Source: Candidatus Bipolaricaulota bacterium (lineage in GTDB: Bacteria > Bipolaricaulota > Bipolaricaulia > UBA7950 > UBA9294). From it: a stretch of 43,065 bases of DNA. Numbering within the stretch: the stretch's first letter is position 1; every line of letters begins with the position of its first letter. A program made the position numbers and the translations under genes. The stretch lies in contig JAUWYG010000002.1 in the NCBI GenBank assembly GCA_030615945.1, forward strand, positions 1 through 43,065. Reading direction: 5' to 3'. The notes below the pieces were generated by a model. It ran no database searches. It saw only the letters and a list, made by a program, of their open reading frames with translations, and was not told the DNA's origin. Below, piece by piece: positions 22,436-35,802 of the stretch.

Positions 22436-23833
22436 ATGAATCATGACCGGGTTTGTTTACGAGACAAAAGAAAGGGGTTGGTCGTCCTCGTCTTAACCCT
22501 GTGGATCCTGGTTCTTCCCCTTGGATATCAGACACGCGCCGATACCAATGGCGATACTCCAGTTATTATCCTGGAGAAGAAACAGGGGGAGGAGGGGACA
22601 CTTCAACTCATCCTTGCAAGCGCTCCCGAGGGAGTGTACATGTACGATATTACGATTTCTGTGAGGGATAGTCGCATCGTGCACATCCGCTCGGCCAGGG
22701 GAATAGCGATCGCAGGGTTCTACTTTCAAGTGGTAAAGACAAGCGGGGACTCGATCGAGTTTCGCGCGTTGGACCTTGATCGGAGCGGTGTGTTGCCAGG
22801 AGCTCGGGATGTCATCCTGGCGGAGATCGACGTGGTAGGATTGGCGAGGGGACGAACGGGAATCGATGTGGAGGTCAATAAATTTATCGACCATCGGGAC
22901 CACAGGGTTGTCCCCCGGGTGGAGTCAATCTCGTTGGAGGTGTTTACCCCCGCTCCCCAATTATCCCCGATCGGAAGCTCTGTGAAGGTTCCTCAGGACC
23001 TGGACGGGGATGGTCTCTATGAAGATATCAATGGGGATGGGAGGCTCACCCCAGAGGATGTCTCCCTGTTTGCCCTTGATATCAACAGTGAGGCCATCCA
23101 GACGCATGAAGAATCTTTTGATTTTAATGAGGATGGGAAGATAGACCTTGAGGATGTCCAAGCATTGGCCGCCTTGGCCGAGAAGGCTAGTCCCATGCTT
23201 ACTAGCCTGCGGCTGGAACAGGGAAGAGGGGAAACAGGAAAGGAGGTTGCCCTCGAATTGCTCTTGGTCAGAGGAGCTCGTGGACTGCAGACCTACGATC
23301 TGGTTCTCTCTGTATCTGACCCCCGAGTGGCCCAGATCAAGGGAATAAAAAGTGATGCGATAGATCAGCGGTTCTTTCAGATCGTTCATCAGGACCCTGG
23401 TTCCATCGAGTTTCGGGCCGCGGACTTCAGGGATCAGATCCAGCCTGGGACGGATGGCGTTACCCTGGCGACGGTTATCCTCACAGGCATGAGCAAGGGC
23501 GAGGCGAAGCTCGACATCAAGGCCAGGGTGATGACGGATGATGAAGGAAACCTGATAGAGCCGTTGGTTCAGTCAGGCGGGGTAACGATAACCGTCTCCC
23601 TCTCACCGATTGGCGACTCAACCCACCGTCCACAGGATTTGGACTACGACGGACTCTACGAGGATGTGAATGGAGATGGGAGATTGACCTTTGCCGATCC
23701 GCTTTTGTTGGCCTTCAATCTTGGTAGCGAGGTGATCCAGGGAAACCCGGCTCTGTTTGATTTCAATGGCGATGGAAGGGTCGATTTCAATGACGCGGGC
23801 ACCTTGGCCACGCTCGTCGAAAAGTTTGAATAA
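22436..23833 (+). CDS. Secreted protein with two tandem units, each a cohesin-like beta domain followed by a dockerin-type Ca-binding repeat pair
   Basis: Signal peptide. Unit 1 is about aa 43-248 and unit 2 about aa 254-465. Each ends with SPIG(S/D)S..PQDLD(G/Y)DGLYED(I/V)NGDGRLT...FDFN(E/G)DG(K/R)(I/V)D(L/F)(E/N)D, which are duplicated EF-hand-like dockerin loops. Confidence 0.6.
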   Translation: MNHDRVCLRDKRKGLVVLVLTLWILVLPLGYQTRADTNGDTPVIILEKKQGEEGTLQLILASAPEGVYMYDITISVRDSRIVHIRSARGIAIAGFYFQVVKTSGDSIEFRALDLDRSGVLPGARDVILAEIDVVGLARGRTGIDVEVNKFIDHRDHRVVPRVESISLEVFTPAPQLSPIGSSVKVPQDLDGDGLYEDINGDGRLTPEDVSLFALDINSEAIQTHEESFDFNEDGKIDLEDVQALAALAEKASPMLTSLRLEQGRGETGKEVALELLLVRGARGLQTYDLVLSVSDPRVAQIKGIKSDAIDQRFFQIVHQDPGSIEFRAADFRDQIQPGTDGVTLATVILTGMSKGEAKLDIKARVMTDDEGNLIEPLVQSGGVTITVSLSPIGDSTHRPQDLDYDGLYEDVNGDGRLTFADPLLLAFNLGSEVIQGNPALFDFNGDGRVDFNDAGTLATLVEKFE

Positions 23834-24264: not shown

Positions 24265-24823
24265 GCGCTCACATTATATCTGAAAAAGGCATAGCCATCG
24301 TGAGGTGGCAGCGCAAAACCGTGGGTCTCTTAGAGACAGCCAGGTTGCCAGAGACAGGGAGGCTAGGATTTAATGTTGACTCTGTCGGGGGCGACCTTGA
24401 TTGTAGCTAGGAGATCTTTTTCTTTACCCCGTATTATTTTCGATGTGTGGTCCCCCTGGCTTTCCGGAGTTAGGTACGTTAAAACATTCACCGAACCTCC
24501 ACATCCCCTTCACGGTAGCTTTACAACTGAGAAGTAAAGTAGCGATGTACGAGAGCAACAATTCAGTATTGTGCCATTATGCTCTTGAATTCCGGAGCTT
24601 CTTGTACTGTAGATCGCAGTTCAGGAGTAGATTTACGCAGAGGAGAGCGAGGCTAGTCTAGGAAGAAGGAGGCACACAGCTATGACTGTTTTCCGGAAGC
24701 GTCCCCACGCTAGTAACCGAATTGAGTTATTCACTGTGTGCCTTCGTCATTATACCACAAAAGCCATCGTTTTGCCGTAATGGCAGTTACAACAGCAGAA
24801 AGAGAAAAAAGGAGATATCAAGA

Positions 24824-26698
24824 ATGAAGGAATTGATGTGGAGAATCGGGAGTCGAATGGAGTCTGGACAAGGGAAGGGACAGCACAGAAGGCGGTTGGT
24901 TCTGCTAGTTGGGATCGCGCTGCTTCTCCTCTTCTCACAGGCGCCGGCCCATCGTGTGCAAGCGGCACCGCCTCTGTGTGTCATGGAGATAGCGACGGAC
25001 AAGTCCGTATACCATCCGGATGAGCCCGTTCAGCTCAATATGTGGATTAAGGTAAATGCCAATCTAGACCTACCAGCAATAGAGAATGCACGCCTGGAGG
25101 TGGAATTAAAGCAGCCGTTCGGGACCTTTGTAACCCTAACCCATCGAGGAGGCATCTCCCTGCGCAAGGGAGCGGAGTGGGAGGAGCAGTTGCTCTCCCT
25201 TCCCATAACCGGAGAACCCTTCCGAAACATGGGCAACTATGAAGCCCATGCGGTGCTCCTCTCGCAGGCCGGTGAGATCTATTGCGAGGCCTATACTGTC
25301 TTCGCTATTGAAAGTATCTTTGGGAGGATGCCCGGCACGCGGACGCTCATCGTCACCTCAAGAAGGACGGAGCTGACGGAGCCGTTCGTATCCAAGTTGG
25401 CTGTCTGGCTTGAAGCAGCTTACCAAACCAAGGTCCAGGTACTCTATCAGGAAGGAGTCTATGAGGCCTATCAGAGCGGGCTCTATCGGGACTTTGATGT
25501 GCTCATCTATTACGCGACGGACTATCAGCAGTCCCCGCCCCCGGAGTTGATCAAGGACATCTTCGAAGGCGAAGGGAGAACCAAGAAGAAGGTGGTCTGG
25601 ATCGGTTACCACCTGGATAAGGTTCAGGCCTACCTGCGGCTGTATGGCTTAAGTTATGGAACGCTCTCTGGGGGGAATGAGCCGGGGAAACTGCTCTACC
25701 TCGATTCCGGAGTGAGCTACGACCTGCGCAACCCTGATTGCATCTCCGTTGAGGTGATCAACGACGACCTCGCTCGCGTCCGTGCCACCGTGGATGATGC
25801 CCCAATCATCGTCAGCGCCAAGCAGACCTATTATCCGGAGGACGGTGAGTGCTTCTACTTCGTCGGCTTCCATCCCACCTCCTACATTGCTCCCTTCGGC
25901 GCGCATCTCGTCTTCTGTGACATCCTAAATGAGGTCTATGGGATCGAGCGAGGGAAGATAGCCCTGGTGAGGCTGGAGGACATTCATGCCTTTACCGATT
26001 CTCAACAGTTACTCTCCATTACCGGCTTCTTGAGAAGCGAACGTGTTCCCTTCACCCTGGCCTTGATCCCGGTATACGTGGGTGGAGATGAGATAGAGAT
26101 CCGCTTAAGCCAGGATAGGGACTTCAGAATCAAGGTTAAGAACGCCCTCTTAGATGGAGGAGAGATCGTCCTCCATGGAGCTACCCACCAATATGATGAG
26201 GTGACCGCTGTGGATTATGAGTTCTGGGATGAGAAAACCGGCACTCCCATAGGCGGCACGGAATATGCCGAACAGCGCGTGGCAGATGCGCTGATGGAGA
26301 TCGAGTTCTCCGGACTTAGACCCTATCTTGCTGGCTGGGAGACCCCGCATTATAAAGCTGATGAAGAGGCCTATACCGTGTTTGAAAGATACTTTGAACT
26401 GATGTATGAGGACCCCCGTTGGGGGTTCGACCTGAAACGCATCCCCTATCCGGTGGAGACTGAGCGCAACTTGTATGTCCGCTCGCAATTGAGCTATGTG
26501 CGGGCGGACTCCCCAGATACGGATGTGAGCACGATACTCCAGGAGGCAACTCTACTAGCCGGCCTGGAACATGGCGCATTGGCCTCTTTCCACTACCATC
26601 CGGAGATGGGGCTCGAAAGGTTAAGGACTATCATCCAGGGCTTAAAGGAGCAAGGCTGGACCTTCAAACCGATCTCCTCCTTGCTAGGCACTGAATAA
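24824..26698 (+). CDS. Secreted DUF2334 (polysaccharide-deacetylase-like) protein with an N-terminal Ig-like domain
   Basis: AGGAG lies 7 nt before the ATG at 24824; the ORF-track extension to 24722 has no support. Signal peptide. LVRLEDIHAFT...VPFTLALIPVY...EIVLHGATHQYDE...EFWDE fits DUF2334. Confidence 0.65.
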   Translation: MKELMWRIGSRMESGQGKGQHRRRLVLLVGIALLLLFSQAPAHRVQAAPPLCVMEIATDKSVYHPDEPVQLNMWIKVNANLDLPAIENARLEVELKQPFGTFVTLTHRGGISLRKGAEWEEQLLSLPITGEPFRNMGNYEAHAVLLSQAGEIYCEAYTVFAIESIFGRMPGTRTLIVTSRRTELTEPFVSKLAVWLEAAYQTKVQVLYQEGVYEAYQSGLYRDFDVLIYYATDYQQSPPPELIKDIFEGEGRTKKKVVWIGYHLDKVQAYLRLYGLSYGTLSGGNEPGKLLYLDSGVSYDLRNPDCISVEVINDDLARVRATVDDAPIIVSAKQTYYPEDGECFYFVGFHPTSYIAPFGAHLVFCDILNEVYGIERGKIALVRLEDIHAFTDSQQLLSITGFLRSERVPFTLALIPVYVGGDEIEIRLSQDRDFRIKVKNALLDGGEIVLHGATHQYDEVTAVDYEFWDEKTGTPIGGTEYAEQRVADALMEIEFSGLRPYLAGWETPHYKADEEAYTVFERYFELMYEDPRWGFDLKRIPYPVETERNLYVRSQLSYVRADSPDTDVSTILQEATLLAGLEHGALASFHYHPEMGLERLRTIIQGLKEQGWTFKPISSLLGTE

Positions 26699-26718: not shown

Positions 26719-26979
26719 GTGAAGAAAACTAACACGGCGGCAAAGAGAAGGGTCCAGTTCATCTTCCCCAGCCAGACCATCGAGGAGCTTGACCGGCTGA
26801 AGGAGCAGATGGGGGCCTCCTCGCGAACCGAGGTGTTGAAGACCGCCATCGAGCTTATGCATTGGGCTATGGCACGGCTGGCAAAAGGTGAGAAGATCGC
26901 GGCGGTAGGGAATGATGAGATATCGGAGACCATCGCTATTCCCGGTGCTCACTCCTTTACAAAAGAGCCGAGGCCGTGA
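26719..26979 (+). CDS. Ribbon-helix-helix protein embedded in the polysaccharide operon
   Basis: 86 aa with a GTG start: RRVQFIFPSQTIEELDRLKEQMGASSRTEVLKTAIELMHWA, a strand-helix-helix pattern. Its stop overlaps the GT2 start by 4 nt. Confidence 0.55.
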   Translation: MKKTNTAAKRRVQFIFPSQTIEELDRLKEQMGASSRTEVLKTAIELMHWAMARLAKGEKIAAVGNDEISETIAIPGAHSFTKEPRP

Positions 26980-28307
26980 CCATCCCGACTGATTTCCTCA
27001 CCTTCTTCTTCCTTTTCTACTGCGTCCTATACAACCTCTTCCTCTGTCTATGCTTCCTCGTCTTCCAATTGTTTTCCAGAAAGGGGAATCGGGCTGGTAA
27101 AGGCGTGGCTGCAACAGATTCAGTTAAAGAGCCGCCGATCATCACGGTGATGATCCCCGCACTGAATGAGGAGCAGGTCTTGAAAGAGACGGTCCAAAGA
27201 TTGCTCGCCCTCCCCTATCCTGGTCGGTTAGAGATCCTAATCATCGACGACTACAGCGACGATAACACGGCAGCCATCGCAGACAGGCTGAGCCTTGCAT
27301 CTGAGAGGGTCTATATTTTGCGCAGAGGCCCCTCTTGTTCGCGGCGCGGAAAGGGGGATGCCTTGAACCATGCCTTCTCTCACCTACTTGCCAGCTTCCC
27401 CAAACGAGATAGGGAAAACTGGGTCATCGGGGTCTTCGATGCCGACGGCCGGGCAGTCGAGGACGACTTTCTCATCGAGGTTGGGAGAGTATTCGGAGAC
27501 GATTCGGTAGCTGCTGCCCAGTGCGGGGTACGGATCAGGAACGGCCATCATCTGCTTGCCGCCCTTCAGGATGTCGAGTTTGCCACCTTCTCGTTTATCA
27601 CCCAAACCGTCCGTGACCGAACCTCAGGGGCGGTGGCTCTGGGAGGCAACGGGCAGTTCATCCGCGCCGCCGTTCTAAATCGGCTGAGCCAAGAGGGAGG
27701 CTGCTGGGATGTTTCAGCCCTCACCGAGGATTTGGATATCGGGGTCCGTATTCATTTAGCTGGTGGACGGATCAGGTTTATCAATCGATGGGTGGAGCAA
27801 GAGGGAGTAGAGTCCTTTAAAGCGCTCTTCAAGCAGCGGCATCGCTGGGCGTGGGGAACGCTGCAGGTCTTCTCAAAGCACCTCTTGAGTGGGAGAGTTT
27901 TTTTAGCCAAGCTTCCTCTAGTCAAGAAACTGGATTTGCACTACTACCTGAGCTTCTGGATAGTGCCCTTTGTCGTTCTCTTCTCCTTTCTCCTCTCCCT
28001 TCTTGACCTCACAGGGATTTTGAAGATCACGAATACTTTCGGCGTGGCTTTCCTGCTGGCTAACTCATTCAGCTTTATTCCAATGATGGTCTTGGGATTG
28101 GTGTGGGCCAAGGTGCCAACACATAAGATATTGTATTTGGTCCCCTTGGCAGTGATCTATGCCTATCACTGGATTCCTGTGCTCCTGGCAGGATTAGTGA
28201 GTATTCTTACCCATAGGCAGCCGCACTGGGTGAAGACCAAACGCTACGCGCTTGTGGAAATGAGCACAGAAAAGGAAACGATCGCAGTGGAGGTAATAGC
28301 AAAGTGA
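26976..28307 (+). CDS. Processive family-2 glycosyltransferase (PgaC/IcaA/cellulose-synthase-like, membrane-embedded)
   Basis: N- and C-terminal TM helices. Motifs IPALNEE, IIDDYSDDNT, FDADG, TEDLD and QRHRWAWG (D,D,D,QxxRW). Confidence 0.8.
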   Translation: MTIPTDFLTFFFLFYCVLYNLFLCLCFLVFQLFSRKGNRAGKGVAATDSVKEPPIITVMIPALNEEQVLKETVQRLLALPYPGRLEILIIDDYSDDNTAAIADRLSLASERVYILRRGPSCSRRGKGDALNHAFSHLLASFPKRDRENWVIGVFDADGRAVEDDFLIEVGRVFGDDSVAAAQCGVRIRNGHHLLAALQDVEFATFSFITQTVRDRTSGAVALGGNGQFIRAAVLNRLSQEGGCWDVSALTEDLDIGVRIHLAGGRIRFINRWVEQEGVESFKALFKQRHRWAWGTLQVFSKHLLSGRVFLAKLPLVKKLDLHYYLSFWIVPFVVLFSFLLSLLDLTGILKITNTFGVAFLLANSFSFIPMMVLGLVWAKVPTHKILYLVPLAVIYAYHWIPVLLAGLVSILTHRQPHWVKTKRYALVEMSTEKETIAVEVIAK

Positions 28308-30421
28308 GATCCGAAAAAGTGCTCATCGTCGTTTCCCTACTACTCGGCCTGGGATTGATGCCCTTCAGCGCAGTGGCTTCTGTCTCGCCTCAACACCTGG
28401 CCCTCTCATTCATCCTGACCGAGATGATGAACGAAGAAGGGGGCATCTATACTCAATATCGGACTCTCCCCAGTTCTGAAGAAGGAGCAGCCGCGGGCCA
28501 CGAGGTCCTGCTCCAGAACAATAGCCTGTTGATGCTCTACGCCGCTCGAACAGGAGACCAGCAACTCCTCGATCAACAAGTGGAGGTAATCAAGGATTAC
28601 TTCCTGGAAGAGAACCTCGGGTTGCTCCACTGGAAGTTGGCCTCCACGATGCACCACTCGGAGAGTTCCTGGGGGACCTATTCCAATTCCCCGGGGGACA
28701 GCCTGCGGGTGGCGGAGGTTCTCCTCCTGGCCTATGAGTATTGGGAAGATGAGACCTATGAAGAACTAGCCCTCAAGATTGGCGAGGGGCTCAAAAGATA
28801 TAACATCGCGCCGGATAAGACGCTGCGCTATTATGCTTCCTGGACCCCGGCGCTCGAGTCAGCGGGATATGGCGATAGAGTCGTTCTGGCGCAGCTCGAC
28901 TTTGGGGCTATGGCCAGATTGACTCAGCAGGATAGGGCTTGGGAAGAGTTCATCGTCGTGAACCTAGAGATAGCTCTCTCGGGGATGACCGATAAAGGAC
29001 TATACTATCAAGACTATCTTCCTGAGCAGCAGAAGTATGAAACAGGCAACGGTAGCATGATCGAGATGGCCCGGGTTGCATATCATCTTGCCGTCTATGG
29101 TCGAAGTCTTGGTGATCCTGCTGCGTCAGATGCAGCGCAAAAATTTCTTGCCTTTGTCAAAGAGGAGTATACAACCAAGGACAGGATACCCGGACGATAT
29201 GATCCTGAGACCGGCATACCGCTGACAACCTGGGAGAACATCGCTGTATATGCGCTGATCGCCCGAATTGCTCTAGAGCTTGAGGACTCCTCGTTTGCTG
29301 AGGAGATCGTCGAGGAGAAGATCCTGCCTCTCCAACAACTGGACCCGCAGTCTCCTGTCTATGGTGCGTTTACAGTTAGATTCGACGATGCCTATGTCTC
29401 GGACACACTTGAGGCTCTTCTGGCCCTAGTGACCCGTGGAGGTCCTGCGGCTGTGACAGAGCAGGAGCCCATTCATGCTGTATGGTATCTTGGTTGGCAA
29501 AAGGAAAGCTATCTTCAACCCAGTGTAGTAGATGATCTACGGCAGATTCAGTCAAGGCTTTGCCCGAACTATATCGGTCTCTCCGCCATCGTTTATCAAG
29601 ATAAGAAGACCTCCTCCGACCCCTATCGCGATCCAGAGAGAACCGCAAGCGATGAGGCCCTCCGCCACGTGATCTCCCAAATCCATCGGATGGGGATGGG
29701 GGTAATCCTTCTCACTCCCCTATTGCCCGACGACGGAACATGGGAGGGGGCAATCACGCCCGAAGATGTCAGCGTATGGTTCGAGCACTGGCGAGAGATC
29801 CTCCTGCATTACGCCGAGCTGGCGGAAGAGACCCGCGTAGAGATCCTGCTCCTGGGCTCGGAGCTCGTCACCCTGCGCGACCGAACGAATGATTGGAACA
29901 GGCTAATAGTGGCCATCCGAAATCGTTATCACGGCAAGCTCAGCTACTCGGTCAACTTCTGGCTCAATCGCGATGGATATCGGCAGGTCCTGAAGATGTC
30001 CCAATGGAAGCACATGGATTACATTGGAGTGACGGGCTACTTTGAACTTACCGACAAGAACGATCCTTCCGTAGAAGAACTTGAGGCAGCTTGGCATAAT
30101 GATCGCCATGACCAGGACATCTTGGCTGATCTAGAGGGCTTGAACAGGAAATATGAAAAACCGGTCGTCTTTTGGGAGATCGGTTACTTTAGTAAGGATG
30201 AGACTAACGTCTATCCCTGGAACTACCCTCGCCCAGGTGAGGTGGATGAGGGTGAGCAGACTGACTGTTGGACTGCATTTCTGAATGTATTTCAAGGTAT
30301 CGATTGGTTCAAAGGATACGGGATTTATGCCGAGCAAGTAGGGCTGCCGCCGAAGCCCCTAGGTTATGATGTGCTAGGGAAACTAGCAGAAGAGCTGCTG
30401 AGAAGGGAGTGCAGTGAATAA
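28304..30421 (+). CDS. Large secreted two-domain glycosidase-like protein (helical N-terminal half plus TIM-barrel-like C-terminal half)
   Basis: Signal/anchor sequence. The C-terminal half has clan GH-A-style strand-end motifs (ILLLGSELV; VVFWEIGYFS) and conserved aromatic residues. The family cannot be assigned by eye. 4-nt overlap with the GT2 gene. Confidence 0.5.
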   Translation: MRSEKVLIVVSLLLGLGLMPFSAVASVSPQHLALSFILTEMMNEEGGIYTQYRTLPSSEEGAAAGHEVLLQNNSLLMLYAARTGDQQLLDQQVEVIKDYFLEENLGLLHWKLASTMHHSESSWGTYSNSPGDSLRVAEVLLLAYEYWEDETYEELALKIGEGLKRYNIAPDKTLRYYASWTPALESAGYGDRVVLAQLDFGAMARLTQQDRAWEEFIVVNLEIALSGMTDKGLYYQDYLPEQQKYETGNGSMIEMARVAYHLAVYGRSLGDPAASDAAQKFLAFVKEEYTTKDRIPGRYDPETGIPLTTWENIAVYALIARIALELEDSSFAEEIVEEKILPLQQLDPQSPVYGAFTVRFDDAYVSDTLEALLALVTRGGPAAVTEQEPIHAVWYLGWQKESYLQPSVVDDLRQIQSRLCPNYIGLSAIVYQDKKTSSDPYRDPERTASDEALRHVISQIHRMGMGVILLTPLLPDDGTWEGAITPEDVSVWFEHWREILLHYAELAEETRVEILLLGSELVTLRDRTNDWNRLIVAIRNRYHGKLSYSVNFWLNRDGYRQVLKMSQWKHMDYIGVTGYFELTDKNDPSVEELEAAWHNDRHDQDILADLEGLNRKYEKPVVFWEIGYFSKDETNVYPWNYPRPGEVDEGEQTDCWTAFLNVFQGIDWFKGYGIYAEQVGLPPKPLGYDVLGKLAEELLRRECSE

Positions 30422-31226
30422 AGCTATGAGAGTATCTACATTAAGCAACCTGGGTGGATATCACTATATATCCAGGAGTAGATATGAATTCAAATACTTG
30501 GTTAGGCCGGAGGTTGCTGAAAGAGTGGTCGATTTCCTAGCACCCCATCTTGAAATGGATGAGCATTGTCGCGGAAGGGACAGCAATTCCTATACCGTCA
30601 GAAGTATATATTTTGATAGCCCTGATTTTGAATGTTTTCACGAAAAGCTTGGAGGGCAGAAACACAGGGAGAAATTTAGAATCAGAACTTACAACAATCC
30701 GGGCTCCAGACCCCTCTTTTTGGAGAATAAGATAAAGGACGGTTTATCCTACGTAAAAGACAAAGTCACTCTCAATGCGGATACCCTGAAAGCAATAAAG
30801 AACCTGGACTATGACAGTTTAAGCGAGGTGGATAGGCATGACAAAGATAAGCGGATCCTTGACAAGTTCTTTTTCTATATTTATCGCAAGGCCTACTCTC
30901 CTGTCGTGCTAGTAGTATATGACCGAGAGGCGTATGTCTATCCGGGGCAAGATACGATTAGAGTAACATTGGATAAAAATCTCAGGGCGAGGATGTTTCC
31001 CAATTTGGCACAGATATATGACGAAGAGAGATTAGAGTATCTGCTTTACCACTGGATCATTTTAGAGATTAAGTTTACCGATATTTTGCCGCGATGGATG
31101 ATGCCGCTGAACTCCCTCTTTTATCTGAAGCGACAAGCTTGCTCCAAATACTGCACATCTGTGGCTCATTTCATCGGTGAAATCCCCTCTTTCAAGGATG
31201 GTTTGGCCTATGTTCGGAGAATCTGA
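30414..31226 (+). CDS. VTC-domain (CYTH-like triphosphate tunnel, polyphosphate-polymerase-like) protein
   Basis: RYEFKYLV...YTVRSIYFDSPDF...REKFRIRTYN...LFLENKIKDG...KDKV is the characteristic tunnel-strand pattern. The GTG at 30414 follows AAGGGAG and overlaps the upstream stop by 8 nt. Confidence 0.75.
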   Translation: MNKAMRVSTLSNLGGYHYISRSRYEFKYLVRPEVAERVVDFLAPHLEMDEHCRGRDSNSYTVRSIYFDSPDFECFHEKLGGQKHREKFRIRTYNNPGSRPLFLENKIKDGLSYVKDKVTLNADTLKAIKNLDYDSLSEVDRHDKDKRILDKFFFYIYRKAYSPVVLVVYDREAYVYPGQDTIRVTLDKNLRARMFPNLAQIYDEERLEYLLYHWIILEIKFTDILPRWMMPLNSLFYLKRQACSKYCTSVAHFIGEIPSFKDGLAYVRRI

Positions 31227-31896
31227 ACCTATCGTAGTTGCCTGGATTGACGTACTCAGCACCATATCGCTGAGTCTGCTGCTTGGAATTTATGTAGCTT
31301 TCGTATATAGAACAGTGACTCCTGGATTTAACTACTCAGTCTCCATTTTGCATACTCTTCTGTACCTTTCCATGATTGTTTCCCTAGTGATGCTGATAAT
31401 CTCAAATCAAATCGCACGCGCATTCACCCTTGTCGGGGCGCTTGCCGTCATCCGCTTTAGGACGCCGATTAAGGATGCCAAGGATGCGGCGTTCATATTT
31501 CTCGCCCTTGCCGCAGGCATGGGGGCAGGGGTAGGCATGTATCTAGAAACAGCCTTGGGTACAACTCTTATCGGCGTCTTCATGTTGCTGATACATTACG
31601 CAAAATTCGGCTTGCGCGCGAAGAGAGAGACTCTGGTCAAGTTCACCGTACCCCTTAACGGCGAAGAGACTTCTCTTTATCACAGGGGGATTTTTGAACG
31701 CTTCCTTCGAGAGTACAAGCTCATAAATGCCCGGTCTTTGCATGAAAGCAGGAGACTGGAGCTAACATTTCTTGTCAAACCTCAGAAGGCGACGGACATG
31801 ATCAAGTTCTCCCAGGCGCTCTCTTCCATACCGCAGATCGAGAAGGTATCCGTAATAGTTAGTGAAGATGAGGAGCTGACTCAGAATATCTTTTAA
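31177..31896 (+). CDS. DUF4956 multi-pass membrane protein
   Basis: About 5 TM helices with the family motif LVGALAVIRFRTPIKDAKDAAFIF. The start is uncertain (GTG 31177, ATG 31198 or ATG 31210), and every option overlaps the VTC stop at 31226. Confidence 0.7.
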   Translation: MKSPLSRMVWPMFGESEPIVVAWIDVLSTISLSLLLGIYVAFVYRTVTPGFNYSVSILHTLLYLSMIVSLVMLIISNQIARAFTLVGALAVIRFRTPIKDAKDAAFIFLALAAGMGAGVGMYLETALGTTLIGVFMLLIHYAKFGLRAKRETLVKFTVPLNGEETSLYHRGIFERFLREYKLINARSLHESRRLELTFLVKPQKATDMIKFSQALSSIPQIEKVSVIVSEDEELTQNIF

Positions 31897-31916
31897 TGGC
31901 TACAAAGGAGGGTAAG

Positions 31917-34625
31917 ATGAACTCTTCATTGAGCGTTGGAAACTTGCAACTGAGATGGTGCATAGTAGGCGCACTTTTGAGCCTTTTTCTGGCAGCTACT
32001 GTCGTTCCTGCCCAGACGCAATCGGTCGTCATAAATGAGTTCTTGGCCTCTAACGGCACGATATTAGCCGATGAAGATGGAGACTACGAAGATTGGATCG
32101 AGTTTTATAACCCGACAACCGAGCCAATAAACCTGGACGGCTATACCCTGACCGACAAGCCGGATATCCCTAATAAGTGGACGTTCCCAGCAGTCACGAT
32201 CCAACCGAATGGATTTCTGCTCATCTGGGCCTCCGGCAAGGATCGCCGCACGCCAGGTAACTGGGATTTCAAAAGACCGCTCATCCTAGAGTTTGAAAGT
32301 GCGGGCTACTATGACGGAGATTTTGCGAGGATCTTGGTCAATGGCGAGGACAAGTCCCTGAACCTCAGGGGCACGAATATTGTGAGGCTTGATGAGCAGG
32401 GCGACTATATAGAAAGCACAGTGTATGATACTTTTGAATCCCCCGATGCTGATGATGATATGGTTCGCTATTTCGAGAACTTGTCGAATGGAGAGATCGT
32501 CATCTTTGCGATCAGAGATGAAGCGTCCGACAATTTGAACTCACAAGCGAGATCTGCCTTAGAAGCTTTAGGCAGTAAATATATAGGGCAATTAGGGCAT
32601 CAGGATTCTTGGGGCATGATTAGCGTAGTGGGGCAGGGGAAGCTCGCAGAAGACTATCAGCCTAGCAGTGAGGGCCCTGCTATGGCCAAGCTTGCAAGTA
32701 AGATGACTTTGCACACCAATTTCAAGATCAACAAGGATGGCGAGTTTTTGGGCCTTTACGCCCCCGATGGGACTGAAATCGACTCTGGGAAGTTCGTTAG
32801 TCAGGTGCGTGATGTCTCCTTCGGCCGTCAGCCTGACGGAGGGGAAGGCTGGTGTCTCTTCTCCGAACCGACCCCGAGCGCCCCGAACGATACAGCCTGC
32901 GCAACTGGGATTGCCGAGCCACCTGAACCTTCCACGAGCAGCGGATTCTACGAGGGGCCCATTACAGTAACATTGTCCGCAATGCCAGAGGAGGTAGCGA
33001 TCTATTACACTCTGGATGGTTCAATACCAACAGAGGCCAGCCCGCGATACATTGATCCCTTAGTCATCGACAGGACGCAAGTCCTCCGAGCCCGCGCCTT
33101 CAAGGATGGTCTGATTCCAAGCCCAATCAGGACATATACCTATCTCATAGACGAAGACGTCCATCTGCCGGTCCTCTCATTGGTGTCCGATCCGGCAAAC
33201 TTATGGGACGATGAGATCGGTATTTATGTAGAAGGATGCTACCCAGCTCATCCCAACTATGTGCAGCACGGTCGAGAATGGGAACGACCGGTGTCAGTAC
33301 AATTCTTCGAAAAGGATGGCTCACTAGGGTTCGCATTGGGCGCAGGCATTCGCATCTTTGGAGGATACACTAGAATTTACCCGAAAAAGAGCTTTGTCTT
33401 GCATTTTCGCGAGCGATATGGCCAAGATCGGCTGGACTACCCCGTGTTCTCCGGGGATGAACCAGGTAAGCCTGACCTGCAAAGTTTGAAGAGTCTTGTA
33501 GTAAGAAATGCTGGGGAAGACGGCTATTGCAGCAATCCCCGAATCCGCGATCCTCTAATGCATACTCTATGGTCAGAGGAAGGCGGGCTAGTTTCAGCGA
33601 AAAGGTCTGTTTCCGTCTATCTCAACGGAGTACCATGGGGCATTTACAACCTCCGTGAGCATATCGACACAGATTATATCGCCACAAACTTCGGCGTTAA
33701 AGACTTTGATTTGATCACTGAGGAAAGAACTGTTAAGGCAGGTGATGCAGTCCACTGGGACGCCACGCTTTCATTCTTCGAAGGCCATGATTTATCCTCA
33801 GATGTTAATTACGCCCAAGCACAAAAGCTCATCGACGTCAAGAACTTTACAGATTTCCAGATCTTCCAGATATATGGTGCAAATATCGATCTAGTAGCCA
33901 ATCTAGTAAAATTCAGGCCTAGGACCCCCGAGGGAAAATGGCAGTGGATCATGTGGGATACAGATCATGCCTTCGCGCTGGAATCATACAATCCCGTTTC
34001 ACACAACACGCTTGCTTGGGGAACGCGGACCAGACCACAGCCCGATCTCGGACCGCCTTGGGATGATGAAAGCACTTCGTGGTCAACCCTGATACTAAGG
34101 AAGTTGCTGGAAAACGAGGAATATTGTAATTACTTCATCAATCGTTTCGCGGATTTATTGAACACCACATTGCACCCGAAGAATGTCATCGCCAAAATCG
34201 ATGCGCTGGCCTCGATCATCGAGCCGGACATCCCTCTGGAGATGGCTCGTTGGAGCAGCGAGTGGGGAGGAACTCTTGAAGAATGGTTAGCGAATGTTCA
34301 AGGGCTTAGAGACTTTGCAAAACAGCGCCCGGGCTTTGTACGAGAACACATCATCGAGGAGTTTGGGCTTATGGGCACAGCGCTTCTGACCATCGAACCG
34401 CCATCAGGTGAAGGCTCCGTTAGGGTAAACACGATCTTACCAACGACCTACCCTTGGCATGGCTCGTACTTTCAAGGCATCCCGGTGAAGTTACAGGCTG
34501 AACCAGCGCCAGGTTATAAATTTACCGGTTGGGGTGATGCTTCCCTGCCCAGGAGCGCCATCGTCGTTGTTTCGTTGCCCGAATCCTACAGCGTTCAGGC
34601 TCTCTTCCTCCCATATGAGAAATAA
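31917..34625 (+). CDS. Secreted CotH-family kinase-like protein: split lamin-tail domain with a nested FAM3/ILEI-like domain, chitobiase-C/Fn3-associated domain, CotH domain, C-terminal Ig-like repeat
   Basis: AGGAGG lies 5 nt before the ATG at 31917; an alternative ATG at 31896 overlaps the upstream stop. Signal peptide. LTD (INEFLASN...DWIEFYNP...LDGYTLTD). CotH core ([10 protein letters not shown]...[9 protein letters not shown]..PKKSF...LVVRNAGED...IRDPLMH). Confidence 0.8.
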   Translation: [902 protein letters not shown]

Positions 34626-34683: not shown

Positions 34684-35802
34684 GTGAAGATTCTAACGAT
34701 TTTCGGCACAAGGCCTGAGGCGATCAAACTTGCTCCGGTTATCAAGGAATTGCAAAAGTCCCCGCTGGTCGAACCGCGGGTGTGCGTCACGGCACAGCAC
34801 CGTGAGATGCTCGACCAGGTGTTGGAGGTGTTCCACATTGTACCCGACTGTGATCTGGACATTATGCACGAAGATCAGAGCCTGTTTGACATCACATCTC
34901 ACGCCCTCCGATTGCTCGAGGATGTGCTAAAGGAAGAAGGGCCTGACATCGTATTGATCCAGGGGGACACCACGACGGCATTTGTCGCCAGCCTTGCTGC
35001 CTACTACTTAAAGATCAAGATCGGCCATGTGGAGGCTGGTCTGCGTACAGCTGATAAGTTCAACCCCTTCCCTGAGGAGATCAATCGGAGGCTTGTGGAT
35101 GTTCTGTCCGATCTCTGGTTTGCCCCCACACAAAAAGCTGAAGCAAACCTGCTCCGGGAAGGATTCCCTTCCGGAAACATCTTTGTCACGGGAAACACGG
35201 TGATCGATGCCCTATTTTTCACCTTGAATCGAGAAGTCCCGATCGCGCGCCAGCAGTGGCTCAGCGATCTGGGGCTATCGAGGGGAGATTCGCGACTGAT
35301 CTTGGTCACCGGCCATCGAAGAGAGAGTTTCGGTGAGGGCTTTAAGCAGATCTGCTACGGGTTGCAGAAGATCGCAGAGCACAACAAGGATCTTCAGATC
35401 GTCTACCCCGTACACTTAAATCCCCGTGTTCAAGAACCGGTACATCGTATCTTAGGAGGAATAGAGAACATCAGCCTGATCGAACCGTTAGACTATGAAC
35501 GGTTTGTATGGTTGATGAATCAGTGCTATCTGGTATTGACCGACTCCGGAGGAATTCAAGAGGAGGCCTCCTCATTGGGGAAACCGATCCTTGTGATGCG
35601 GGAGAAGACCGAGCGTCCGGAGGCGGTTGAAGCAGGTATTGCTAGGCTAGTCGGAACAGATTGCGACAAGATATTCACAGAAACGCAGCGGCTGTTAGAC
35701 AATTCTGCCATCTATGAGAAGATGGGAAAAGCAATAAGCACGTTTGGCGATGGCCGGGCAGCTGAGCGGATCGTTGAAATACTGCTAAACCATGTTAAGT
35801 GA
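34684..35802 (+). CDS. wecB: UDP-N-acetylglucosamine 2-epimerase (non-hydrolysing)
   Basis: MKILTIFGTRPEAIKLAPV...QGDTTT...HVEAGLRT...PFPEE...LTDSGGIQEE. Confidence 0.92.
   Translation: MKILTIFGTRPEAIKLAPVIKELQKSPLVEPRVCVTAQHREMLDQVLEVFHIVPDCDLDIMHEDQSLFDITSHALRLLEDVLKEEGPDIVLIQGDTTTAFVASLAAYYLKIKIGHVEAGLRTADKFNPFPEEINRRLVDVLSDLWFAPTQKAEANLLREGFPSGNIFVTGNTVIDALFFTLNREVPIARQQWLSDLGLSRGDSRLILVTGHRRESFGEGFKQICYGLQKIAEHNKDLQIVYPVHLNPRVQEPVHRILGGIENISLIEPLDYERFVWLMNQCYLVLTDSGGIQEEASSLGKPILVMREKTERPEAVEAGIARLVGTDCDKIFTETQRLLDNSAIYEKMGKAISTFGDGRAAERIVEILLNHVK

Follow-up and report, generated by a model that had tools for sequence, protein, structure and literature searches.

Whether a domain of the GG type, known from the FAM3 proteins and the stem region of POMGnT1, can be built into the loop of another domain in a bacterial kinase-family protein, and what it might do there, is the question raised by a gene in a stretch of 43,065 nucleotides (nt) from a Candidatus Bipolaricaulota bacterium (contig JAUWYG010000002.1). 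We refer to this whole stretch as the window; all coordinates are its own and are given on the forward strand. A single uninterrupted open reading frame (ORF), 31896..34625 (+), encodes a CotH-family protein of 909 amino acids (aa), which comprises a hydrophobic N-terminus, a lamin-tail domain (LTD) split by a GG insert, a CHB_HEX_C/Fn3_assoc domain, the CotH kinase domain, and a C-terminal beta domain. The original prediction, made by reading the DNA without database searches, had placed a GG/FAM3 domain inside the LTD of this protein. Profile searches, structure prediction, and conservation among related genes all bear this out, and the peptides quoted in its favor are all present in the ORF. 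A complete GG-type domain interrupts one LTD, in the loop between the strand carrying the conserved WASGKDR motif and that carrying LHTNFK.

By sequence comparison, profile matching, and predicted structure alike, the insert is a GG/FAM3-type domain with a beta-beta-alpha fold. In a profile search of the protein, ILEI, LTD, CHB_HEX_C_1/Fn3_assoc, and CotH were all matched above their Pfam cutoffs. The ILEI profile (PF15711) is covered over its entire length (positions 1–90 of 90) by aa 158–247, with 74.9 bits (the cutoff is 27) and an E-value of 7.2e-21, which supplies the significant hit expected at aa ~127–250. Scanning positions 32274-32645 (aa 127–250), where the domain had first been placed, yields 79.7 bits. 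These positions do lie inside the GG insert, but they end too early and omit the last two strands: judging from homology and from the strands of the model described below, the folded core extends from about aa 128 to aa 267, and with its linkers the insert occupies aa 121–270. A phmmer search of the PDB with the insert returned the POMGnT1 stem (E-value 1.3e-9), FAM3B (3.6e-8), FAM3A (1.4e-5), FAM3C (1.8e-5), and TMEM2 (3.3e-4).

AlphaFold applied to the single sequence of aa 38–327 gave a predicted local distance difference test score (pLDDT) of 36, and the result was discarded. We used instead a model built on an 80-row alignment, in which nested orthologues were combined with contiguous LTDs and with GG domains that stand free in other bacterial proteins; this model has a mean pLDDT of 91.3 and values of 90–97 in the GG region. 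When this model was submitted to Foldseek, the POMGnT1 stem (5ggj/5ggl) ranked first or second with an E-value of 5e-9, target-normalized template modelling (TM) scores of 0.80–0.82, and a root-mean-square deviation of 1.8–2.7 Å across ~152 columns; FAM3B, FAM3C, and FAM3A ranked after it, with TM scores of 0.66–0.72. The RG, DE[AG]S, and DSW motifs of the GG family, to which the POMGnT1 stem, FAM3A-D, and CEMIP/TMEM2 belong, are conserved in the window domain. Whereas these known members stand alone or form a stem region, the window domain is bacterial and sits in the loop of another domain.

The segments on either side of the insert add up to one LTD. In the intact protein, the Pfam LTD profile (PF00932) matches aa 39–150 over profile positions 3–87 of 109 with 55.1 bits. 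The N-terminal piece alone (aa 39–120) matches positions 4–71 with 51.5 bits, and the C-terminal piece alone (aa 269–325) has no Pfam match. Upon in silico excision of aa 121–270, which joins aa 39–120 to aa 271–325, the match spans profile positions 4–104 of 109 and scores 65 bits. The joined LTD can be aligned from end to end (positions ~5–137) with uninterrupted LTDs, 174 of them in 142 proteins, and in the multiple alignment the GG block falls exactly between the WASGKDR and LHTNFK segments of these contiguous LTDs. Over 189 pairings of N-terminal and C-terminal halves, the extra length relative to the composite LTD has a median of 0.

The model agrees with this picture. The LTD halves have pLDDT values of 87–96 overall, with the C-terminal half at about 95, and the sole dips in confidence occur at the two linkers, where the means over 10-residue blocks are 54 at one and 83 and 77 at the other. 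Given the LTD sequence evidence together with high-pLDDT halves and dips at the junctions, it is very likely that the two halves assemble into one beta-sandwich. A discordant result is that Foldseek recovers lamin B1 (3jt0) weakly, with a probability of 0.57 and a TM score of 0.45, across a 150-aa gap; we attribute this weak superposition to the 150-aa insert, which breaks the sequential alignment. Ordinary LTD–CHB_HEX_C–CotH proteins (PF00932 + PF13290/PF13287 + PF08757) have the identical domain order, and their contiguous LTDs are 45–56% identical to the LTD halves of the window protein. However, their LTD is an uninterrupted domain of ~135 aa, whereas that of the window contains the GG insert of ~150 aa.

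The nested layout is real, conserved in at least three phyla, and rare. When 1.84 billion cluster representatives were searched exhaustively by HMMER, with the insert as the query, 1086 proteins were found at E <= 1e-3. A word-index homologue search using the insert alone found nothing; with the LTD plus insert as the query, chiefly plain LTD proteins were returned, and no PF15711 annotation occurs among the best 120 matches listed. The full-length nested architecture is repeated domain for domain in P0243 (903 aa) and P0183 (957 aa), the latter with an additional Por_Secre_tail, and the fragments P0232, P0258, P0271, P0272, and P0273 match the nested layout as far as they reach. A pattern-based scan of 185,579 species genomes identified six loci: one in a metagenome-assembled genome (MAG) labelled Thermotogaceae (78% identity to the window), one in another MAG (77%), one in Ca. 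Acetothermia JdFR-48 (68%), and, more distant, one in Caldithrix sp. (41%) and two in Vicinamibacterales (37% and 34%). JGI metagenomes yielded seven loci, six of which are related to the window at 68–96%.

Mapping of these genes by tblastn showed that the same insertion recurs. The N-terminal LTD half, GG domain, C-terminal LTD half, CHB_HEX_C, CotH, and C-terminal domain are collinear in one frame in loci L003-L007 and L009-L014. P0243 and P0183 are likewise collinear in one frame, and the LTD/GG/LTD/CHB_HEX_C/CotH layout recurs on at least 13 independent contigs. The carriers are labelled Acetothermia, "Thermotogaceae", Caldithrix, and Vicinamibacterales, and the N-terminal LTD half is 54–99% identical in orthologous loci. 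In a rough neighbor-joining tree of 300 GG domains, computed from p-distances and bearing no bootstrap or other support values, all 12 nested domains lie inside a clade of 15. Because the nested GG domains cluster together in this way, the tree suggests a single old GG insertion that later spread across phyla.

Some features of individual relatives deserve mention. The labels of the nearest ones conflict: L003 (CAYUWL010000037.1, 78% identity) is assigned to an uncultured Thermotogaceae bacterium and L005 (MTNJ01000052.1, 68%) to Candidatus Acetothermia, which may reflect a mislabelled MAG or a transfer of the locus. Judged by its nearest labelled relatives, the window probably derives from an Acetothermia/Bipolaricaulota-like organism. 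The neighbors of L001 include PSD-domain genes, which had hinted at Planctomycetota, but this locus is labelled Vicinamibacterales. Two relatives are mosaic when compared with window positions 32010-34622: in L011 (5737-8328) and L012 (12-2618), the N-terminal LTD half and the GG domain are 89–99% identical to the window, against 65–75% for CotH, and the flanking DUF4956 gene of L011 is 99% identical. This pattern suggests either intragenic recombination or faster divergence of the kinase half. In L001 and L008 (8001-10702) and in L002 (8001-10741), gene calling splits the gene into two or three pieces, owing to frame shifts in otherwise collinear DNA. Frame-shifted gene calls of this kind may be behind the short database entries (261–358 aa) of the nested family.

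The insertion site is not reserved for GG domains. At least 10 other LTD proteins (P0028, P0044, P0094, P0293, P0038, P0101, P0118, P0068, P0061, and P0283) hold an unrelated insert of 164–247 aa in the same loop, after SGKDR and before LHTNFK; the equivalent loop in the window lies at ~32250-32710. A typical insert of this type is ~188 aa long and shows a conserved pattern, W..Y / YDD..W..G.SGFGYGD.DD / VDYDDGFVAY.NG.EIAR. The ~188-aa inserts of P0028, P0044, and P0094, the three that were scanned, have no Pfam match, and that of P0044 has no sequence match in the PDB. Since at least 10 LTD proteins bear other inserts at this place, the GG insertion is one case of a wider habit of LTDs, and in bacterial LTDs the WASGKDR/LHTNFK loop seems to serve generally as a slot for cargo domains.

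In bacteria, GG domains as such are rather common, with 1086 clusters among the representatives searched, and most of them lie in other settings. These include tandem arrays of 5–6 copies, Peptidase_C25 (gingipain-type) proteins with type IX secretion system (T9SS) tails, and fusions to Acyl_transf_3 or Laminin_G_3. Representatives in non-nested settings are P0121, P0122, P0139, P0144, P0150, and P0176, with CARDB in the Peptidase_C25 ones. The original description of the GG domain in 2006 reportedly noted phage tail-fiber proteins. A phage Tal module with a fold like that of the POMGnT1 stem has been interpreted as a carbohydrate-binding module (PMC9437275). The GG domains of such bacterial and phage proteins are homologous to that of the window (30–47% identity), and most keep the complete set of sugar contacts discussed below, but they are arranged in series, un-nested, and without a kinase.

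The CotH domain of the window protein aligns with practically the whole Pfam profile (positions 1–321 of 322) and contains the catalytic-loop motifs N663-I-D665...N669 and W687-D688-T-D690. A phmmer search of the PDB with this domain as a single sequence gave no match; a six-sequence CotH profile reached Bacillus cereus CotH (5jd9) with an E-value of 1.3e-5, and N663-x-D665...N669 and W687-D688-x-D690 align with N-F-D...N and W-D-Y-D of that protein. The spacing between D665 and D688, 23 residues, equals that between D228 and D251 of B. subtilis CotH, the catalytic and the metal-binding Asp (PMC7821199), and the equivalents of both are invariant in seven orthologues. Because both catalytic Asp residues are aligned, spaced alike, and invariant in orthologues, the domain is predicted to be an active kinase. 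The Bacillus spore-coat kinases (5jd9/5jda) belong to the same Pfam family and share these motifs, but they are very distant, have none of the N-terminal modules of the window protein, and work inside the forming spore coat. As for where the window protein acts, its hydrophobic N-terminus, judged by eye, is a probable Sec signal peptide or signal anchor, which suggests a location outside the cytoplasm.

The CotH gene is the last of three co-oriented genes, encoding a VTC (polyphosphate-polymerase-type) protein, a DUF4956 membrane protein, and CotH, whose ends overlap (Table 1); the ATG of the CotH gene overlaps the stop codon of the DUF4956 gene (TAATG). Upstream, start and stop codons also overlap between the GT2 and GH113-like genes and between the GH113-like and VTC genes, so that the coding regions of GT2, GH113-like, VTC, DUF4956, and CotH all overlap or abut. 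The placement of the CotH gene in a polysaccharide-type gene cluster is supported by the Pfam matches of the neighbors, and synteny supports it as well. Adjacent, co-oriented VTC, DUF4956, and CotH genes are also found in L001-L003, L005, L007-L011, L013, and L014; the contigs of L004 and L012 end just upstream of the CotH gene, and VTC lies ahead of DUF4956 in every related locus with upstream DNA recovered, except L006. The upstream order DUF2334/GT2/GH113-like is repeated in L005, L009, L011, and L014, and a WecB-type gene occupies the same position in L009 and L010. Across L005, L009, L010, L011, L013, and L014, the gene order is kept at identities from 57% to 97%.

Table 1. Parts of the CotH-family protein gene and its neighbors in the window
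Feature	Coordinates	Strand	Evidence
Whole CotH-family gene	31896..34625	+	ORF, 909 aa; Pfam architecture
N-terminal region, aa 1-38	31896..32009	+	Hydrophobic stretch then PAQTQ, read from sequence
LTD N-terminal half, aa 39-120, ending at conserved WASGKDR	32010..32255	+	Pfam LTD profile 4-71
GG-type (ILEI/FAM3/POMGnT1-stem) insert with two linkers, aa 121-270	32256..32705	+	PF15711, PDB phmmer, Foldseek
LTD C-terminal half, aa 271-322, beginning at conserved LHTNFK	32706..32861	+	Joined-LTD profile match, alignment with 174 contiguous LTDs
CHB_HEX_C_1 / Fn3_assoc beta-sandwich, aa 348-416	32937..33143	+	PF13290 62.1 bits, PF13287 52.5 bits
CotH kinase domain, aa 485-814 by Pfam (homology extends over aa 421-830)	33348..34337	+	PF08757 151.2 bits
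C-terminal ~79-aa domain, aa 831-909	34386..34622	+	tblastn conservation; weak Flg_new_2
DUF2334	24722..26698	+	Pfam
GT2	26976..28307	+	Pfam
GH113-like	28304..30421	+	Pfam
VTC (polyphosphate-polymerase-type) protein, first gene of the VTC-DUF4956-CotH triad	30414..31226	+	PF09359 161.7 bits
DUF4956 membrane protein, middle gene of the triad	31177..31896	+	PF16316 45.6 bits
UDP-N-acetylglucosamine 2-epimerase (WecB type), 59 nt downstream of the CotH gene	34684..35802	+	PF02350 393.5 bits

A module of cotH, a polyphosphate polymerase, and DUF4956 has been described contiguous with Gram-positive pel operons (PMC7112168). Streptococcus intermedius mutants that lack the CotH or the DUF4956-like gene have less Pel and aggregate less, and the same study did not find the triad outside pel loci (PMC12345266). 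In the window, however, the triad lies outside a pel locus, against DUF2334, GT2, GH113-like, and WecB genes, and none of the ORFs scanned from 18619 to 41827 gave a Pel-family or DUF4832 Pfam match. The window resembles the Gram-positive pel-locus module (PMC7112168; SIR_1592-1594, PMC12345266) in having the three families side by side and bordering exopolysaccharide genes, and in a CotH that is secreted or, in the window, predicted to be so, and differs in its neighbors and in that neither pelDEADAFG nor DUF4832 was detected. The streptococcal CotH further differs in carrying a C-terminal FN3 domain and has not been described with an LTD or GG domain. A few kilobases upstream of the polysaccharide/CotH cluster, at 22436-23833 (+), lies the gene of a 465-aa protein that combines type I dockerin repeats with EF-hand-like calcium loops, a possible secreted partner or matrix protein.

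What the GG domain might contribute depends on the sugar-binding capacity of its relatives. As had been assumed in the original prediction, the POMGnT1 stem does bind glycans: it recognizes beta-linked N-acetylglucosamine (GlcNAc) via Arg129, Asp179, and Arg207; FAM3C, FAM3A, and Caenorhabditis elegans Fam3L2 bind GlcNAc too, and Fam3L1, which lacks Asp179 and Arg207, binds no sugar in vitro (PMC9802357). Mapped through the alignment, the equivalents in the window are R158, D208, and Q236, so that Gln replaces Arg207 and the triad is incomplete. The combination R-D-Q is shared by L003 and L004, L005 has R-D-W, and six sequences of the Vicinamibacterales clade have A/T-G-D; the Caldithrix clade is the sole nested group with a complete R-D-R triad. 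In comparison, 200/286 other bacterial GG domains have R-D-R.

For the role of the insert, we lean slightly toward a reading in which the LTD+GG unit docks the CotH kinase on an extracellular target, with an exopolysaccharide as the likeliest one in the window's clade. The LTD+GG unit would keep the kinase attached to this target, and in the window's clade the target would most plausibly be an exopolysaccharide containing N-acetylhexosamine (HexNAc) or a glycosylated matrix component, the polymer being made by the products of the co-oriented GT2, DUF2334, GH113-like, and WecB genes. Once docked, the kinase would phosphorylate a nearby substrate, protein or glycan, within the VTC-DUF4956-CotH module, and the nested layout of the GG domain probably helps to aim the kinase at its target. 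Consistent with docking are the retention of R158 and D208 in the window and of R-D-R in Caldithrix, the lectin precedent of POMGnT1 and FAM3, the conserved synteny with polysaccharide genes, and the link of the gene triad to Pel and aggregation.

Several observations weigh against this reading. At the third sugar-contact position the window has Gln and L005 has Trp, and the Vicinamibacterales clade has lost all three contacts, yet retains the insert; because of this, classical GlcNAc binding cannot be a function conserved throughout the nested family. The genomic context varies as well. Outside the window's clade, the gene triad has no polysaccharide genes beside it: VTC and DUF4956 are present in the Vicinamibacterales loci, but the other neighbors there are unrelated and polysaccharide genes are absent, and in the Caldithrix locus neither VTC nor DUF4956 was found within 8 kb.

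An alternative that we regard as possible but clearly less probable than docking on a glycan is that the GG insert has kept the lectin fold but offers a protein-interaction surface, or serves as a rigid spacer, through which the LTD and the kinase are presented to a protein substrate; the enzyme would then be an ordinary protein Ser kinase of the Bacillus CotH kind. The degenerate sugar-contact triads of the nested domains, set against the predominance of R-D-R elsewhere, fit this alternative, as does the precedent of Fam3L1, which binds no sugars without the equivalents of Asp179 and Arg207 (PMC9802357). So does the fact that the only CotH enzymes characterized are Ser kinases acting on proteins (PMC7821199), and, since the LTD loop takes unrelated inserts, the site may merely tolerate cargo domains. 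On the other hand, the window retains two of the three contacts and the Caldithrix orthologue all three, the Gln in the window could still hydrogen-bond to a sugar hydroxyl, and the operon coupling to polysaccharide genes is tight in the window's clade.

The original prediction went further and took the domains to point to a kinase directed at carbohydrate rather than at protein, a step for which we find no direct support. A lectin-fold docking module tells where an enzyme docks, not what it phosphorylates, the triad in the window is incomplete, and the enzymes characterized in the family act on protein (PMC7821199). The chitobiase-C-like CHB_HEX_C domain, which had been taken as a further pointer to a carbohydrate substrate, is generic to LTD-CotH proteins: CHB_HEX_C_1/Fn3_assoc domains are standard in such proteins without a GG insert (many matches), and for this reason CHB_HEX_C adds no specific evidence.

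Secretory-pathway kinases that act on glycans do exist, for example the xylose kinase Fam20B and the O-mannose kinase POMK. By analogy, the CotH domain could itself be a glycan kinase, with the GG domain binding the sugar substrate and the enzyme phosphorylating the exopolysaccharide. We consider this unlikely. It would suit the polysaccharide gene context and the presence of a lectin-fold module on the enzyme, as well as the altered Pel levels of a CotH mutant in S. intermedius (PMC12345266). Against it stand the generic nature of CHB_HEX_C, the incomplete or lost sugar-contact triad of most nested members, and the orthologues outside the window's clade that have no polysaccharide neighbors; moreover, sequence does not separate protein from glycan acceptors. 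To our knowledge, no CotH enzyme acts on sugars, and we know of no CotH kinase outside the spore-formers whose substrates have been established.

A still more far-reaching scheme, to which we would give little weight, casts VTC-DUF4956-CotH as an extracellular phosphorylation machine in which VTC and DUF4956 would make and export polyphosphate as the phosphate donor, the secreted, GG-docked CotH would phosphorylate a HexNAc exopolysaccharide as a lectin-guided bacterial glycan kinase, and the LTD loop would act as a cargo slot through which the enzyme could be retargeted by swapping domains. That the arrangement is an artefact, either an assembly chimera or frameshift or two separate degenerate LTD fragments flanking a GG domain, has next to no probability, because, although the gene calls of P0258, P0271, P0272, and P0232 are short (261–358 aa) and the Pfam LTD envelope (aa 39–150) reaches partly into the insert, the window ORF is uninterrupted over 909 aa, the same single-frame collinear layout recurs in different samples, on at least 11 independent contigs, the short fragments are frame-shifted calls of DNA that encodes the whole protein across frames, and the two halves sum to exactly one LTD (median gap versus contiguous LTDs of 0); the excision, the alignment of 174 LTDs, the collinear loci, and the zero median gap led us to reject it.

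All parts of the protein belong to known families, and the arrangement does not constitute a new type of system; automatic Pfam annotation already marks the nested fragments with PF15711 and PF00932. A literature search for CotH with ILEI or lamin tail found no paper describing the combination. In the literature searched, three points appear to be undescribed: that a GG domain is nested in an LTD loop within CotH kinases, that this nesting is conserved in three phyla, and that the LTD loop acts as an insertion hot-spot. A lectin-fold module in a defined loop of a CotH enzyme provides a concrete handle for locating the docking site via ligands, and the three natural versions of the sugar-contact triad (R-D-R, R-D-Q, and lost) form a ready comparison series. 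The module of CotH, polyphosphate polymerase, and DUF4956 matters for Pel-dependent aggregation in streptococci. That the LTD loop repeatedly takes up whole domains is useful for protein engineering and for annotation, the latter because Pfam gives truncated LTD matches at such insertions.

No NCBIfam model matches the 909-aa protein or its GG insert. The ~79-aa domain at the C-terminus is conserved across L001-L014 by tblastn and shows an InlB B-repeat-like match to Flg_new_2 that lies under the cutoff (E-value 6.5e-4). In the Caldithrix-type protein P0183, a T9SS sorting domain follows this C-terminal domain.

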